NCBI GenBank assembly: GCA_934179675.1
Contig: CAKPQS010000002.1
Coordinates: 752 to 64,751, forward strand
Direction: 5' to 3'
DNA length: 64,000 nt
DNA from: an uncultured Bacilli bacterium
GTDB taxonomy: Bacteria; Bacillota_I; Bacilli_A; RF39; UBA660
Part shown: piece after piece, positions 1 through 61,192 of the stretch
How positions within the stretch are numbered: the stretch's first letter is position 1
How the letters are laid out: each line of letters opens with the position of its first letter
Position numbers and translations under genes: made by a program
The notes under the pieces: generated by a model
What the model was told of the DNA's origin: nothing
Databases searched by the model: none
Seen by the model: only the letters and a program-made list of their open reading frames with translations

Positions 1-658
1 TTCTAAAATAACAGTAAATTATATCGCTGAGGCATCAACACTAGTAGATAAAATGATTGATACTAATTATATAGGTGGTGGTAGTAGTAGTAGTGAATCA
101 TCTAAAGGCAATGTTATAAAAGGAAATATAATTCCAGAATATTCAATTATAATAACAGGTAATGATGATATAAAATATGAATCTAATAATAGAGTAAAAG
201 GTACAAAAGTAACTTTAACATCTATATCAGGTAATAATTATGTAACATCATTTAAAATGAATGGAACTACCATAAATGGAAATGAATTTATAATGCCTGA
301 TAACGATGTAACAATAAGTGATATAGTAACAATATCTTGTAAAACAATTGAGTCTGCTCATAATCCATACCCTGATTCGCAAGATAATGTTATACTTGGT
401 GAACATACATTCGAAGGAGCAAAAGCTTTAACAGTCATACTAGATTATCAAACTGAAAGTGCATGGTGTGATTACTTCTTAATATATGATTCTTCTTCCT
501 CAACAACAGGTATAAACAATAATAAAAAATATGGTGGAAGTACTAGAACAAAAGAAACAATAACAATTAACTCTAACTATATCAAAATAACATTTACAAG
601 TGATAGTTATGATAACAACTTTTATGGCCTAAGAGCAATCGTAATCCCTAACTATTAA
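1..658 (+). CDS. 3' part of a DUF285-repeat surface protein paralog. The ORF is open to the window start and carries a ~200-aa C-terminal extension ending ...GLRAIVIPNY.
   Basis: No stop in frame from nt 2. Residues KITVNYIAEASTLVDKMI align with the C-terminus of the 2800-3924 protein (KITVNYTSSTSTLVDNMI), followed by an extra Ser/Gly/Asn-rich tail. Confidence 0.6.
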   Translation, partial: SKITVNYIAEASTLVDKMIDTNYIGGGSSSSESSKGNVIKGNIIPEYSIIITGNDDIKYESNNRVKGTKVTLTSISGNNYVTSFKMNGTTINGNEFIMPDNDVTISDIVTISCKTIESAHNPYPDSQDNVILGEHTFEGAKALTVILDYQTESAWCDYFLIYDSSSSTTGINNNKKYGGSTRTKETITINSNYIKITFTSDSYDNNFYGLRAIVIPNY

Positions 659-779
659 TATATTTAGAAACTATAATGAAATGAAATATTTTTATGCAGA
701 GATTATTGAAAGAGTAGTTAAAATAAAAACTGATATTTAGAATTATTTTCTGTTGAGTCTGTAAATAAATTTGTGTAAA

Positions 780-2150
780 GATAAAATCCTTTCTATGGTA
801 ATATAGAAATATAGAACCAAGGAAGGATTTTTGTATGAAGGAAAATAAAAATAATGAAGTTGTTAAATATTTATTAGAAAATTATGATATTAAAAATGCA
901 AATGATATTGCTTATGCATTAAAAGATATGTTTAAAGATACTATTAAAACTATGATGAATGCTGAATTTGATTCATCTATGGGTTATGAAAAAACGATAA
1001 TAAAGTAGAAAAATCAAACTATAGAAACGGTTATTCTTCTAAAAAGGTAAAAAGTCAATTTGGTGAATTTGAACTATCAGTACCAAGAGATAGAAATGCT
1101 GAATTTGAACCTCAAATTGTTCCTAAAAATAAAAGAGATATCTCTGGTATTGAAGAGAAAGTTATAAATCTTTATGGCAACGGTTTATCTACTAGAAAAA
1201 TAAGTGATTCTATCGAAGATATCTATGGAGTTCAACTATCTGCTACAATGATTAGCAATATAACAAATGCAATTTTAGAAGAGATAGAAGAATGGCAAAA
1301 AAGACCATTAAAAGAGGTATAACCAATTGTATTTATTGATGCTATACATTTTAATATTAAACAAGAAAATGTTATAGTTAAGAAAGCTGCTTATGTAATA
1401 CTAGGTGTTAATGCTGATGATTTTAAAGAAGTGCTTTGAATATGGAATGGAGAAAATGAGTCAGCTAGATATTGGTTAGGTACTTTAAACGAATTAAAGA
1501 ATCGTGGTGTTAAAGATATTTTAATTATATGTTCTGATGGATTAAAAGAAATAAATGAGGCAATCAAAGCAGTTTATCCAAAAGCTATGCAGCAAAGATG
1601 TATTGTTCATTTAATTAGAAATTCTGTTAAATTTGTTTCTTATAAAAATTTAAAAGAATTTTGTAATGATTTAAGAACTATATATAAATCAAATACTGAA
1701 AAGGAAGCAAGAGAAAATTTAGAAAAAGTAAAAAACAAATGGGGTTCTATTTATCCAACAAGTTTAAAAGTTTGGGAAGATAATTGTGAAGCAATTTGTA
1801 CATTATTTAACTATTCCAAGGAATTAAGAAAAATAATGTATACAACAAATGCGATAGAAAGTTTAAATCGTTCATATCGCAAATATACCAAAACAAAAGG
1901 AGTATTTACTAGTGATAATTCTTTAATGAAATGTTTGTTTTTAGCTACTAAAAATGTAGAAAAAAATGGACTACTAGATATCCTAATTGGGATATGATTT
2001 ATAATGAATTAAATATATTATATCCAGAACGATTAAATTGATCTTTGAAAATTATTAAATTTATGTTATTATTTAAGTAACAAAAAGAGATTGATACTAA
2101 TCAACTTTGAACATCTTTATTACCATGGATTGGTAACTTTACAAAAAGTT
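780..2150 (+). mobile_element. Degenerate IS256-family insertion sequence. Boundaries are approximate and no clean terminal inverted repeats were resolved.
   Basis: Contains an IS256/mutator-type transposase reading frame (GYEK...YRNGYSSK...PIVFIDAIHF...CIVHLIRNS...YTTNAIESLNR) broken by several lesions. Confidence 0.55.
837..2041 (+). pseudogene. IS256-family transposase pseudogene. Lesions: a -1 frameshift in an A-tract near 1000, TAA at 1319-1321 in place of the conserved Tyr of the IS256 ...EVYPIVFIDA... region, TGA at 1437-1439, and a frameshift near 1990.
   Basis: Three reading-frame segments each align collinearly to IS256 transposase; the last intact piece is ORF 1587-1997. Confidence 0.7.
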
Positions 2151-2253
2151 TTTTACACTCTCATATAGTATTTGTTGCCCGATATTTTTCTTCTTTTCTT
2201 CATTTAATTTGGTTATTCTTTTCATATTTGCTAAAAAGAGCGTAGTTGTCCCT

Positions 2254-2496
2254 TTATATTGTAATGTCTAGTTTTCCACAAGCATTAGCTTTATCATATC
2301 CATAACTTTTCTTTAGATCAGCATTTTTAGCTTCTAACATATATCTATTTGAATATAATTCTCTAAATTCATCAGTATTCATATAGTCCATTTGTTCAAT
2401 ATGTGTTTCATCTTTTATTTTTACATTAAATGTTTTTGCTTTAGCTCCCTCTTTATAACAACCATCTTTAAATGGACAATGCTTGCATTTTTTCAC
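2254..2496 (-). pseudogene. Fragment of an IS1182/IS5-like transposase (CxxC...C motif region), truncated at both ends.
   Basis: 80-aa ORF with a GTG start: CKHCPFKDGCYKEGAKAK...RYMLEAKNADLKKSYGYDKA resembles the Zn-knuckle and following region of IS1182-family transposases. There is no upstream continuation and it abuts the IS256 remnant. Confidence 0.3.
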
Positions 2497-2520
2497 ATCA
2501 AAAATTTTTAATTATTTTTG

Positions 2521-2551
2521 GTTAATCTATTGTTTTCAATTTAAAAAAATG
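2521..2551 (+). promoter_or_regulatory. Sigma-70-type promoter (TTGTTT-16-TGTATAAT) driving the leader ORF plus DUF285 gene.
   Basis: Hexamers with 16-nt spacing and a TG-adjacent -10, ~35 nt upstream of the leader ORF RBS (AGGATAAGGTG). Confidence 0.45.
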
Positions 2552-2584
2552 TATAATTGATATAGAAGGATAAGGTGTGTATAT

Positions 2585-2803
2585 ATGAATATTGTTGATA
2601 AGTCTATAAATAAAAATACATACATACATACATACATACATACATACATACATACATACATACATACATACATACATACATACATACATACATTACTAAA
2701 TAATAAAAAAATTAGTATTTTTGATAGTGATTTAATAGGAGTAGATTATATAGATTCTGGTCCTATTTTTAGTGTATTTAATTTATTGGGAGGAACAATA
2801 TGA
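2585..2803 (+). CDS. Leader ORF (72 aa) containing the tetranucleotide repeat, translated as (YIHT)n. Its stop codon overlaps the start of the downstream DUF285 gene (ATGA).
   Basis: ATG with RBS. The ORF reads through the (ATAC)19 tract and ends in TGA at 2801-2803, overlapping ATG 2800. The first 10 codons (MNIVDKSINK) are conserved in the second cassette copy at ~38010. Confidence 0.5.
   Translation: MNIVDKSINKNTYIHTYIHTYIHTYIHTYIHTYIHTLLNNKKISIFDSDLIGVDYIDSGPIFSVFNLLGGTI
2616..2691 (+). repeat. Perfect tetranucleotide repeat (ATAC)19 (equivalently (TACA)n) inside the leader ORF.
   Basis: 76 nt of uninterrupted ATAC units, counted directly. The paralogous leader at 38030-38045 has only ~1-2 units. 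Confidence 0.95.
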
Positions 2804-3924
2804 AGAAGAAAATTTTATTTTTATCAATATTATGTTTATTATTTGTAACATTAAGTTATACTTATTCATCATTTAATAATACTATTGTAGGTACTATAAC
2901 AGCTAATGTAAAAGATTGGGTATTTAAAGTAAGTGTAAATAATGGTACTATCAAAGATGGTGGATATAATTTACATTTAAGTGGTACTAGTGGATCATTT
3001 AACATTAATATTAATACTACTGGATCTAAAAGTGGAGCAGATTATACTATTGAATTAATAGGAGATAGTTCAATTAAGTTTTATACAGATAGTAGTTATA
3101 CTAAATTAATTAATAATAATATATATAGTGGATCTATAGATAGTAATACTAGTAGTAGTGTTACAATATATTATAAGTTTGATACTAATATTAATAGTGA
3201 TATTTTAATAAAAACTAAAGGTACTATAATGGAAATTGCAACGATGAAGAATGGGAATATTTTTTATCTTCGTAGTACTGAATTTTGGAATGCAGCATAT
3301 AGACCTTATATAAGAACGATTAATTTTGGTAATGATTTAAGTAATTTACCAAGTACTTGTACAGAAGAAAATTTATGTTGGGATATATCTGAAAGTCCAA
3401 CTCAAAAGAAGAAAGTGTATGGATATTTAGTTGATACTGGATTAAAAGATAGTACTGATAATACAGAATCATTATATAATTTATATATTGTAAGTGAAGC
3501 ACCGATATTTGCACCATCAAATTGTAGAGGATTATTTTCATTATCAACAATTGGACATAGTAAAGAAATATCAAATTTAATATCTATAAATTTTAATGAT
3601 AATTTTAATACCGCAAATGTAACATCTATGGAAAGTATGTTTTCTGACTGTTCATCCTTAACAAGTATAGATTTAAGTGGTTTTAATACTTCGAATGTAA
3701 CAAATATGGAAGAAATGTTTTTTTATTGTGAATCCTTAACAACAACAATAAATATAATGAGTACAAGTGTTACGAATTATTCAGAAATGTTTAGTGCTGC
3801 AGCAACAGCTAGTGGTGCTAAAATAACAGTGAACTATACATCATCAACAAGTACTTTAGTAGATAACATGATTGCAACTAAATCATCTAATAGCAATGTT
3901 ATAAAAGGAGTCCAAATAAATTAA
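2800..3924 (+). CDS. Secreted surface protein with C-terminal DUF285-type (Mycoplasma-like) leucine-rich repeats. It has an N-terminal signal peptide and may be phase-variable.
   Basis: Signal peptide MKKKILFLSILCLLFVTLSYTYSSF. C-terminal repeats of type MFSDCSSLTSIDLSGFNTSNVTNMEEMFFYCESL fit the DUF285 motif. Strong RBS GGGAGG 6 nt upstream. Confidence 0.75.
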   Translation: MKKKILFLSILCLLFVTLSYTYSSFNNTIVGTITANVKDWVFKVSVNNGTIKDGGYNLHLSGTSGSFNININTTGSKSGADYTIELIGDSSIKFYTDSSYTKLINNNIYSGSIDSNTSSSVTIYYKFDTNINSDILIKTKGTIMEIATMKNGNIFYLRSTEFWNAAYRPYIRTINFGNDLSNLPSTCTEENLCWDISESPTQKKKVYGYLVDTGLKDSTDNTESLYNLYIVSEAPIFAPSNCRGLFSLSTIGHSKEISNLISINFNDNFNTANVTSMESMFSDCSSLTSIDLSGFNTSNVTNMEEMFFYCESLTTTINIMSTSVTNYSEMFSAAATASGAKITVNYTSSTSTLVDNMIATKSSNSNVIKGVQIN

Positions 3925-3953
3925 ATATAATTTTAAAATAATATTAATATATA

Positions 3954-3980
3954 AATCAGGTTATTCCTGATTTTTATTTT
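3954..3980 (+). terminator. Rho-independent terminator (AATCAGG-ttatt-CCTGATT followed by a T-run).
   Basis: 7-bp stem, 5-nt loop and TTTTTATTTT tail downstream of the 2800-3924 CDS. Confidence 0.7.
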
Positions 3981-16540: not shown

Positions 16541-18998
<2,458 letters not shown>

Positions 18999-28294: not shown

Positions 28295-28629
28295 GGGGAT
28301 GCCAGGTTTCGACAGAAATATGAGAGTATTGGCCGCAAGTCGTAGGAACACGTTACGAACAAAAATAAAATAACTGGAAACAGAAATCAATTAGCTTTCG
28401 CTTAATATAAGAAGGCGCTTCACTTAATTTTCTCCCATGAAATTATTTGGGGCTCATTTAATGGGATATATTAGTTTATTTGCCTAGATAAATTAATGAA
28501 TAATAAAGGCTACTAAATTAGGGATTGCTAGTTATCAACTTTCTTTAGGACATTTATTAACTAGATAAACTTGTAGAAACTGATAGATGATTATTTTTGG
28601 ACAGGATTTCAATATCCTCATCTCCACCA
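28295..28629 (+). ncRNA. ssrA: tmRNA (SsrA). Predicted tag reading frame ends ...GNRNQLAFA.
   Basis: 5' GGGGATGCCAGGTTTCGACAG and 3' GGACAGGATTTCAATATCCTCATCTCCACCA (tRNA-like acceptor/T-arm, CCA). Internal ORF ends GCT TTC GCT TAA. Upstream extended -10 promoter (TTGCAA...TGGTATAAT). Sits downstream of smpB as in Bacillus. Confidence 0.85.
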
Positions 28630-37991: not shown

Positions 37992-38153
37992 GAATGGTAA
38001 GGTGTGTGTATATGAATATTGTTGATAAGTCTATAAATAAAGATGCATACTAAATAATAAAAAGATTAGTATTTTTAATAATGATTTAATAGGAGCAGAT
38101 TATATAGATTCTGTTCCTATTTTTAGTGTATTCAATTTATTAGGAGGAAGTAT
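37992..38153 (+). repeat. Second copy of the DUF285-gene 5' cassette (promoter, leader ORF start, RBS), ~90% identical to 2568-2799 but with the ATAC tract collapsed to ~1-2 units.
   Basis: Direct alignment: ...GGTGTGTGTATATGAATATTGTTGATAAGTCTATAAATAAAGATGCATACTAAATAATAAAAAGATTAGTATTTTTAATAATGATTTAATAGGAGCAGATTATATAGATTCTG... versus the copy at 2570. Confidence 0.85.
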
Positions 38154-38366
38154 ATGAAGAAGAAAGTTTTGTTTTTATCAATATTATGTTTATTATTTGT
38201 AACATTAAGTTATATTTATTCGTCATTTACGGCTACAATAGCTATAAACAATAATAAAAAATATGGTGGATTAAGTTATAGTGGATATAGTGAGTATTCA
38301 AGAACATCAGAAACTATAACTATTACTAGCAATTACATAAAAATAACATTTACAAGTGATAGTTGA
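38154..38366 (+). pseudogene. Chimeric or truncated DUF285-family gene remnant: signal peptide of the 2800-type gene joined to a tail related to the C-terminal extension of the 1-658 paralog.
   Basis: MKKKVLFLSILCLLFVTLSYIYSSF... then INNNKKYGG...ETITITSNYIKITFTSDS*, compared with INNNKKYGGSTRTKETITINSNYIKITFTSDSYDNNFYGLRAIVIPNY* at 545-658. Terminator-like hairpin at 38388-38412. Confidence 0.6.
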
Positions 38367-60525: not shown

Positions 60526-60855
60526 ATGTATCAAGATAGAATTCTATTAACAAGTAAAGATATTTATGAAAAAGAATTTAAAGTCGATACAAGAGGGTAT
60601 CGTCCTCAAGAAGTGGATAAGTTTTTAGATGATATAATGAGAGATTATGAAGAATGGAGAAAAATTGTATCTGAACTTGAGGAAGAAAAAAAAGAACAAT
60701 TAGAAGAAATAATAAAATTAAAGCAAGAAATTAGATACTTAAAAACACAATTAGAAGTAGCAAAAGATGGAAAACCAGAAACAAGTATAAACAATACAGA
60801 TTTATTAAGAAGAATATCTAATTTAGAAAAGGTTATATACGGAAAAGAAGAATAA
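60526..60855 (+). CDS. gpsB: Cell-cycle protein GpsB (DivIVA-domain).
   Basis: ILLTSKDIYEKEFKVDTRGYRPQEVDKFLDDIMRDYE matches GpsB. Confidence 0.85.
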   Translation: MYQDRILLTSKDIYEKEFKVDTRGYRPQEVDKFLDDIMRDYEEWRKIVSELEEEKKEQLEEIIKLKQEIRYLKTQLEVAKDGKPETSINNTDLLRRISNLEKVIYGKEE

Positions 60856-61192
60856 TAACAGACAAACGCTGCATTTTATATAATGTAGAGGAAAGTCCAT
60901 GCTCGCACTATCTGTGATGATAGTAGTGTTCATGTAAGGGGAATAAATAACCCTTAGTAGTTTAAAGCTAACGGCGACTAAAAACCTTAAAAGGTTATAT
61001 GTTGTAAAGTGCCACAGAAACGAGTATTTGGGAAACCAAATAATGAAACGCGGTAAACCCCATGAGCGAGAAACCCAAATTATGGTAGGGGAACCTTGAT
61101 GTCGGAAATAAGAACGAATAAAGGATCGAAAGATAGATAAATGTTTGTCGCCTTTATAGGTACAGAACATGGCTTATGTTATTATTATTTTT
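60850..61192 (+). ncRNA. rnpB: RNase P RNA (type B, compact).
   Basis: P4 5' strand GAGGAAAGTCCATGCTCGCAC, AACGCGGTAAACCCCATGAGCGAGAAACCCAAAT, P4 3' strand ACAGAACATGGCTTA. P1 (AATAATAACA/TGTTATTATT) and P2 (GACAAAC/GTTTGTC) pairings close the ends. Sits after gpsB as in B. subtilis. Confidence 0.85.

Follow-up and report, generated by a model that had tools for sequence, protein, structure and literature searches.

A 64,000-nt stretch of contig CAKPQS010000002.1 (positions 752 to 64,751; assembly GCA_934179675.1) from an uncultured Bacilli bacterium, hereafter the window, encodes close to its 5' end a secreted protein of 374 amino acids (aa) with DUF285/PARCEL repeats, and this gene is preceded by a short leader open reading frame (ORF) that carries a long tract of the tetranucleotide ATAC (Table 1). 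The protein matches both Pfam DUF285 (PF03382; E=5.6e-14, 52.4 bits with a cutoff of 25) and the NCBIfam PARCEL repeat model TIGR02167 (56.9 bits, cutoff 30), has 1900 homologues at E<1e-5, and is encoded in identical form on 4 other contigs.

All 19 ATAC units at 2616-2691 are perfect according to a regular-expression (regex) search, and Tandem Repeats Finder (TRF) calls the tract as (ATAC)19.5 at 2616-2693, with 100% matches and a score of 156. The only other perfect simple sequence repeats (SSRs) within the 64 kb are A10 and T11, so that (ATAC)19, the sole long SSR of this window (24.9% GC), is a clear outlier, far beyond chance expectation. The tract lies outside the ORF of the structural gene, ending 108 nt before its ATG at 2800, and this SSR of non-triplet unit length is contained in a leader ORF with its own ribosome-binding site (RBS), whose Shine-Dalgarno (SD) sequence AAGGTG is unchanged in a second copy of the same cassette within the window (copy 2) and at L001, L002, L011 and L030a (L numbers denote retrieved loci). 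The tract, the 72-codon leader and the overlap of the leader TGA with ATG 2800, which yields the sequence ATGA, had been reported in a preliminary description of the window, and all three hold. When the leader was rebuilt with 0-30 ATAC units, reading through to the ATGA was possible for n = 1 mod 3 only; as that description had stated, the other two frame classes end at TAA 2697-2699 or TAA 2701-2703, which lie 103 or 99 nt before the ATG. These early stop codons are kept in all cassette copies. The description had also spoken of a three-state switch, of which the dependence of the frame on n mod 3 stands; however, because the early stops are only 4 nt apart, the switch has two distinguishable outcomes, not three.

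Between the short-frame stops and the structural gene lies a feature that the preliminary description missed, namely a predicted intrinsic-terminator-like hairpin followed by five T residues (T5), which may offer a better-precedented effector step, attenuation. Folding of this candidate attenuator gives -12.0 kcal/mol (z = -2.7), and its counterpart in copy 2 forms a perfect 12-bp stem with -15.5 kcal/mol (z = -5.1). With the main gene's own 3' terminator taken as a calibration standard, both leader hairpins are predicted to be stronger. Furthermore, when every T-run on both strands of the window was scanned for an adjoining hairpin, copy 2 ranked 4th and copy 1 12th among the 742 sites, and most of the other top-ranking sites on the + strand sit 9-170 nt past ORF ends and thus are genuine terminators. 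Ten distinct copies share the T5 run unchanged, and a single position of their 5' arm is variable, with U or C there, either of them able to pair with G. The distance from the end of the early stop to the hairpin base is 28-38 nt in all alleles, and the read-through frame crosses both arms and terminates 69-72 nt beyond that base. Loss of a functional tract goes along with loss of the hairpin in the two cases at hand: at L006 the tract is interrupted and the stem reaches only -4.8 kcal/mol, and at L010 the tract is absent and the 5' arm of the hairpin is deleted.

A comparison of this locus in related genomes, which the preliminary description had suggested as a check, shows that the number of units does differ among strains at the same position (19, 6, 2, 4, 4 and 6). 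Alleles with the same order of leader, DUF285 gene and uvrA were obtained from other human-gut metagenomes by exact look-up of the DUF285 protein and of its close relatives; scans of genome and metagenome collections with GATTTAATAGGAGYAGATTATAT yielded far less, with only two useful loci each, plus a chance archaeal match (L005). Samples ERZ4559348, ERZ27287138, ERZ27287352, ERZ4559485, ERZ15609756 and ERZ28614707 carry the locus. In the alleles that keep the tract, the upstream, coding and downstream segments are 99.1-100% identical to those of the window, and the 374-aa protein sequence is identical on contigs whose tract lengths differ. Since the tract has varied nonetheless, it constitutes a local mutational hotspot: it is a genuine hypervariable SSR within a leader ORF, and the locus is a real contingency locus. 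Overall, tracts found elsewhere comprise 1, 2, 4, 6, 7, 8, 14 or 19 units, and four contigs end at the tract. In contrast to the flanks, the 108-nt leader segment that follows the repeat (window 2693-2799 compared with L001:2890-3000, L003:2890-3000 and others) is only 86.5-87.4% identical, with 11-12 mismatches and a 3-nt indel, so that paralogous cassettes have evidently donated this segment, through recombination or gene conversion. At L001:2848-2891, a second SSR, (AAAT/ATAA)5, abuts (ATAC)6 and the leader stop is a TAA inside the ATAA run; hence, two neighbouring tracts could both set the frame there.

The cassette is indeed located 5' of at least six paralogous loci, at which the number of units ranges from 1 to 19 or more. 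Exactly 19 units are present at two loci in two assemblies (window 2616-2691 and L031:2317-2392), both in the read-through frame; this shared length may be a coincidence, an upper limit of short-read assembly or a preferred length. Another short SSR, an (AT)6-7 run at L013:5790-5808, separates the leader ATG from the SD-like sequence and could alter the spacing between SD and start. Copy 2 of the window is ~93% identical to copy 1 from the leader SD through the signal peptide. The preliminary description had noted it as the same leader with few units and an early stop, which is correct (a single ATAC unit followed by TAA 38051), but the ORF behind it is a 70-aa stub rather than a full DUF285 gene. 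The stub keeps the signal peptide of the family and is short in two assemblies (70 aa at window 38154-38366, 75 aa at the same locus in L030, 4138-4365); an NCBIfam match of the stub with the lactococcin 972 family stays below threshold (E=0.0057; 16.9 bits, cutoff 32.1) and is probably spurious.

Table 1. Features of the leader cassette and its surroundings in the window, alleles of the same locus, and paralogous cassettes.
Feature	Position	Strand	Description and basis
Putative sigma-70 promoter	2530-2557	+	-35 TTGTTT (2530-2535), 16-nt spacer, extended -10 TGTATAAT (2550-2557); read from sequence
Leader ORF SD	2572-2577	+	AAGGTG, 7 nt 5' of ATG; read from sequence
Leader ORF	2585-2803	+	72 codons in the 19-unit frame; ORF call, frame simulation
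(ATAC)19 tract	2616-2691	+	Perfect tetranucleotide tract, hypermutable element; TRF, regex
Early stops of the two non-read-through frames	2697-2706	+	TAA 2697-2699; TAA 2701-2703 then TAA 2704-2706
Intrinsic-terminator-like hairpin, candidate attenuator	2734-2770	+	Arms 2734-2745 and 2756-2767, 10-nt loop, T-run 2766-2770
Main gene SD	2788-2794	+	GGGAGGA, 5 nt 5' of ATG
DUF285/PARCEL-repeat secreted protein	2800-3924	+	374 aa; N-terminal signal-peptide-like segment MKKKILFLSILCLLFVTLSYTYS
Main gene's own 3' terminator	3953-3980	+	8-bp stem, 3 GC pairs, then T-run; -9.6 kcal/mol
Paralogous cassette, copy 2	37996-38366	+	Leader ATG 38012; one ATAC unit 38047-38050; TAA 38051; hairpin 38088-38121 and T5; SD; 70-aa stub ORF 38154-38366
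Transposase remnant, Mutator family	1587-1997	+	Context, not part of the switch
Transposase remnant, DDE_Tnp_1_6	2254-2496	-	Context, not part of the switch
Allele, window			19 units
Allele, L001			6 units and adjoining (ATAA)5
Allele, L002			2 units
Alleles, L011 and L012			4 units each
Allele, L003			6 units; different leader start; transposase remnants absent
Alleles, L004 and L009			Contig ends within tract
Allele, L010			No tract; upstream half of leader also missing
Cassette, recA-adjacent 454-aa PARCEL gene			L013, 14 units; called leader ORF P0123, ~7; L014 breaks at tract
Cassette, 459/486/509-aa PARCEL gene			L006, decayed tract, 2 units; L007, at least 14; L029, 7
Cassette, 628/644-aa PARCEL gene			L028, 7 units; L031, 19; L032, at least 8, at contig edge
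Cassette, 557-aa PARCEL gene			L030, 2 units
Cassette, L008			8 units

The part of the leader that follows the tract behaves like a sequence that has to remain translatable. In 9 of 9 distinct DNA variants, which were collected without reference to ORF calling, all 36 codons of the read-through frame are open, and the post-tract leader is 111, 114 or 117 nt long, both indel sites being of 3 nt. Shuffling puts the probability of an open stretch at p = 0.014 for a given frame and at p = 0.045 for any frame; the remaining two frames carry 5 and 8 stops. Variable sites are distributed as 8/10/8 over the three codon positions and the majority of changes are non-synonymous, indicating that the amino acid sequence of the leader is not constrained. 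An open frame with a freely changing peptide fits the pattern expected if translatability is required and the peptide itself is irrelevant. A protein search with the leader retrieved 15 called read-through leader ORFs from other assemblies, with varied N-termini and repeat numbers. Among ten alleles found independently of leader-ORF calling, three are in the read-through frame, close to the expected one third, which fits a free-running switch; a bias toward this frame was considered and dropped, the three alleles being indistinguishable from that expectation.

The anatomy of the locus, its frame logic, the polymorphism of the tract, and the strength and conservation of the hairpin are thus directly established, and we assign a probability of about one half to the interpretation that together they make up a contingency switch that flips by slipped-strand mispairing and acts through leader-peptide attenuation. 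Under this scenario, a transcript initiated at the putative promoter (~2530-2557) would start with the short leader ORF (ATG 2585, SD AAGGTG) holding (ATAC)n, and, the unit being of 4 nt, every unit gained or lost would shift the leader frame. In two of the three frames, ribosomes would halt at TAA 2697/2701, ~30 nt before the hairpin and T5 (2734-2770); the hairpin would then fold and most transcripts would end at ~2770, before the DUF285/PARCEL gene, giving a low or OFF state. With n = 1 mod 3, which includes the present 19 units, ribosomes would cross both hairpin arms and finish at the ATGA, and a ribosome lying across the hairpin would block formation of the terminator, resulting in transcriptional read-through and a high or ON state. 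Attenuation may be combined with translational effects, as some of the ribosomes that finish the leader at the ATGA may re-initiate on the main ATG. Given that one cassette precedes at least six paralogous PARCEL genes, each of them would switch independently. What we infer in this scenario is that the promoter is used, that the leader is translated, that transcripts terminate at the hairpin, and in which direction the effect goes.

The leader-peptide attenuation scenario is favoured because the pil1 and pil3 pilus loci of Streptococcus gallolyticus (S. gallolyticus) have matching parts, arranged and spaced alike; there, the leader-peptide ORF holds 22 or 13 GCAGA repeats, and a stem-loop terminator follows the stop of the short frame at a distance of 39 or 33 bp (Danne et al. 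2014, PMC3894217). Slippage out of this frame yields a longer peptide with a stop within or beyond the hairpin, and the translating ribosome prevents termination, leading to high transcription of the pilus genes, whereas isolates with a stop at least 28 nt upstream of the hairpin have a low phenotype (PMC3894217). Regulation of pil1 stayed heterogeneous in L. lactis, and with 23 repeats expression was high throughout (PMC3894217). The statement in the preliminary description that an SSR in a leader ORF had not been described is therefore wrong, as the same logic operates in pil1/pil3. Both systems consist of a promoter (putative here), RBS, leader ORF with a non-triplet SSR, short-frame stop, stem-loop, second RBS and surface-protein gene; in both, the short-frame stop precedes the terminator by ~30-40 nt and the long frame ends within or beyond the hairpin; and in both, the repeat number varies among isolates, more than one module locus is present per genome, and the host is a gut-associated member of the Bacillota. 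The differences are nevertheless considerable. The repeat is ATAC (4 nt, 19 units) here and GCAGA (5 nt, 22 or 13 units) there; one frame of three reads through here, whereas in pil1 out-of-frame changes give long peptides; the hairpin of this 25% GC genome is weaker (-12 to -15.5 as opposed to -18.7 and -28.2 kcal/mol); the long-frame stop overlaps the main start codon only here; and the target is a PARCEL/DUF285 secreted protein instead of a sortase-assembled pilus. In addition, at least six loci share a recombining cassette here, and the present system is known from sequence alone. In the absence of sequence homology to pil1/pil3, the two systems are analogous, not related. The locus looks like a second natural example of the S. 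gallolyticus-type stochastic on/off switch and not like a new kind of switch.

Several observations weigh against attenuation. Termination at the hairpin is a prediction, the loop is large (10 nt), copy 1 contains a G-G mismatch, the T-run has just 5 residues, and the stem is weaker (-8.8 kcal/mol) in the lineage of L003, L007 and L029. Four pair-disrupting substitutions are uncompensated, and no covariation is detectable, with 86.7% of cells paired and 0 compensatory pairs; with 95% identity, the ten distinct copies are too similar for a covariation test, which is accordingly uninformative about the hairpin. The leader SD, although good here, is weaker or oddly spaced at L003, L013 and L028, and the state assigned to L008 depends on which of its two candidate leader ATGs, lying in different frames, is chosen. 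The lack of new stops among ~26 substitutions is not significant alone (P = 0.21). More generally, RNA polymerase runs ahead of the ribosome in some Bacillota, a situation unfavourable to ribosome-mediated antitermination, and the two may be only loosely coupled in this phylum. The S. gallolyticus case shows that such antitermination can work nonetheless.

An identical frame logic would also allow a purely translational switch, and the preliminary description had proposed that re-initiation at the main ATG occurs only if leader translation reaches the ATGA, transcription being unaffected. Each of the 19 cassette DNA copies examined has the overlap, either as ATGA or as GTGA, and coupling would matter more for the several alleles that start the main gene with GTG, behind a weaker SD (AGAAAGGGAAACAATGTG). 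However, ATG followed by AAG (Met-Lys) yields ATGA automatically, and P0132, one of the called leader ORFs, has lost the overlap, the second codon being GAG there. A strong, correctly spaced SD (GGGAGGA) precedes the main gene and is unpaired in predicted folds of 2692-2830 and 2565-2830 (z = -1.0 and 0.09), so that the downstream gene appears to have an accessible RBS of its own; neither fold contains significant sequestering structure, and SD sequestration as the basis of coupling was therefore rejected. Moreover, coupling leaves the conserved hairpin and T5 without a role, and L010 apparently manages without the leader ORF. The case for obligatory coupling at the ATGA is thus weak, and we consider it unlikely and less probable than attenuation. 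The hairpin, the open 36-codon frame (p = 0.014) and the stops right after the tract in both other frames are likewise left unexplained if the number of units simply grades the level or stability of the mRNA, through leader length, RNA structure or protein binding, with leader translation irrelevant. Such a frame-independent effect would agree with the position of the tract between the putative promoter and the start codon, as with AGAT(n) before uspA2 (see below), and with the recurrence of long tracts (14 to 19 or more units) at several loci; yet the whole-leader fold is no stabler than shuffles, and this explanation appears quite improbable.

The elements might also have come together by chance, the tract being a neutral, recombination-prone microsatellite in a gene-converted 5' cassette and the ORF and hairpin being incidental in a 25% GC genome. 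The divergence of the post-repeat leader amid nearly identical flanks (99-100%) does indicate that the cassette is shuffled by recombination; there is neither amino acid constraint nor covariation; and L010 as well as the cassette-less paralogues L015, L019 and L033 do without the tract. Against this stands the status of (ATAC)19 as the only long SSR in 64 kb, and bacteria rarely retain 19 perfect tetranucleotide units unless mutability is selected. The hairpin is among the strongest terminator-like sites in the window, and the open frame, the stops that follow the tract at once in the two alternative frames, and the hairpin with its T-run coincide in the order and spacing of a known mechanism, which makes neutrality doubtful in our view. 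Finally, the leader ORF could encode a functional small protein, with the tract phase-varying that protein and not the downstream gene. Its 36-residue C-terminal part is recognisable in the 15 called ORFs and its indels are in frame; but the 8/10/8 distribution with mostly non-synonymous substitutions and the lack of any Pfam match for the leader peptide led us to reject a conserved protein, the N-terminal part is swapped wholesale between loci, and conservation at the nucleotide level together with recombination accounts for the similarity, so that hardly any likelihood is left for this option.

Other contingency loci resemble the present one in part. In Moraxella catarrhalis (M. catarrhalis), 13-18 units of AGAT(n) lie upstream of the ORF of uspA2, and expression is described as graded with repeat number at the transcript level (PMC7302503, citing Attia & Hansen 2006). 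The likeness consists in a long tetranucleotide tract of strain-variable length, 5' of a surface-protein ORF and outside the coding sequence; the differences are the graded response, with no dependence on a leader frame or terminator described in that secondary account, the Gram-negative host and the unrelated protein family. The AGTC tract of the Haemophilus influenzae mod gene is reportedly an intragenic tetranucleotide contingency locus. Like the H. influenzae loci, the present one has a perfect tetranucleotide tract of ~20 units in which slippage shifts the frame, and long tracts imply high switching rates; there, however, the tract lies inside the structural gene and slippage truncates the protein, whereas here a separate upstream ORF is frameshifted and the structural ORF is untouched. 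Surface-protein families of Mycoplasma combine a conserved 5' cassette with SSRs in the promoter region, such as the poly(A) of M. hyorhinis vlp and the (TA)n of M. mycoides Vmm. The common theme is a multigene surface family sharing a cassette of 5' untranslated region and signal peptide, with a hypermutable SSR in each copy; the mycoplasmal SSRs, however, occupy the -35/-10 spacer or lie upstream, in contrast to the position here, 3' of the best promoter candidate and within a leader ORF, and the present host has cell-wall genes and the standard code. DUF285/PARCEL proteins themselves are typical of ruminant mycoplasmas (PMC10634449).

Our literature searches found leader-peptide SSR attenuation with experimental evidence in one species only, and phase variation of DUF285/PARCEL proteins by a leader-SSR route was not found. 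The locus would appear to join a known but rare kind of switch. If this is true, its independent occurrence, without homology, in an uncultured bacterium of the human gut would point to a mechanism that is convergent and probably under-detected, and to leader-peptide SSR attenuation as a general, repeatedly evolved strategy and not a peculiarity of S. gallolyticus. Short leader ORFs and SSRs outside genes are skipped by annotation pipelines. It would also be the first proposed phase-variation mechanism for PARCEL/DUF285, a very large family of unknown function, and would mark these proteins as surface structures exposed to the host or to phages under fluctuating selection in the gut. The cassette comprises the start of the leader, the (ATAC)n tract, a pair of early stops, the candidate attenuator hairpin, an SD and the signal-peptide segment. 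More tentatively, by placing a pil1-like switch before at least six PARCEL/DUF285 genes, its recombination could provide combinatorial surface variation, with gene conversion of the switch between loci, as part of a repeatedly evolved strategy. As public metagenomes contain natural alleles with anything from 2 to 19 or more units in near-identical backgrounds, the attenuation model is directly testable.

With respect to transcription initiation, the candidate promoter upstream of the leader was read by inspection; a consensus promoter scan omitted 2530-2557, where the -35 agrees with the consensus at 3/6 positions only. A TATAAT/TAAAAT box followed by a ATAGAAGG motif recurs 5' of the leader at other loci. 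The tract begins 58 nt 3' of the best -10 candidate and, with 76 nt, is too long for any -35/-10 spacer. The idea that a conserved TTGATAA 5' of the tract serves as a -35 with the tract as spacer was rejected by inspection because a -10 at a workable distance is absent even in alleles with 1-2 units. The sole promoter candidate 3' of the tract, TTGATA-17-GATTAT at 2721-2749 (9/12), is not favoured, most alleles having TTAATA as the -35. A known RNA family in the leader was likewise rejected: no Rfam match reaches the gathering score there, and within the window only transfer-messenger RNA (tmRNA) and RNase P do so. An Rfam scan of 2500-2840 by E-value returned just sub-threshold microRNA matches, three over the repeat or the leader start and one at 2794-2836 on the minus strand. 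The 'mir-297' match at 2633-2693 (-), with 36 bits against a gathering score of 90, is an artefact of the GTAT/ATAC repeat.

Look-ups of P0086, P0068 and P0021 led to a paralogue that lacks the cassette, located between secE and the 134-aa ORF that follows ftsQ, which was used as a negative control. A 1-nt difference in the T-rich signal-peptide stretch separates versions of this gene (L019:5965-6001, also L020-L027 and L033, compared with L015:6001-6040); on at least 10 contigs, the frame opened by the ATG closes with TAG after 9 codons, and the called gene begins at a later ATG, without the signal peptide. This secE-adjacent paralogue could be a pseudogene or a homopolymer frameshift switch. 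The surroundings of the cassettes are variable as well. L028:3251-6867 and L031:1162-5269 have a common right flank (DUF285, a 236-aa ORF and a radical-SAM/SPASM gene), whereas the left flanks differ, with a prepilin peptidase in L028 and ftsQ followed by the 134-aa ORF in L031. Comparison of window 53-2800 with L003:2063-3001 reveals the two transposase remnants, between a 201-aa gene and the cassette, in the window only; the coding sequence and downstream flank of L003 match the window exactly. The cassettes appear to be rearrangement breakpoints.

The host lineage is walled and probably spore-forming: FtsW, MurG, MurB and FtsQ are encoded, and sporulation-associated domains are seen. A tmRNA at 28295-28629 (122 bits) and a class B RNase P RNA at 60854-61180 (264 bits) fit a member of the Bacillota. 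Reading of TGA as Trp (genetic code 4) was rejected because code 11 leaves uvrA and the other ORFs intact and because the host has cell-wall genes. Elsewhere in the window, a GrpE-like protein (16541-17164) has an unusual N-terminal extension that is first lysine/glutamate-rich and then consists of a cysteine-rich CxC repeat, encoded by 5.3 copies of a 15-nt tandem repeat (16593-16672).

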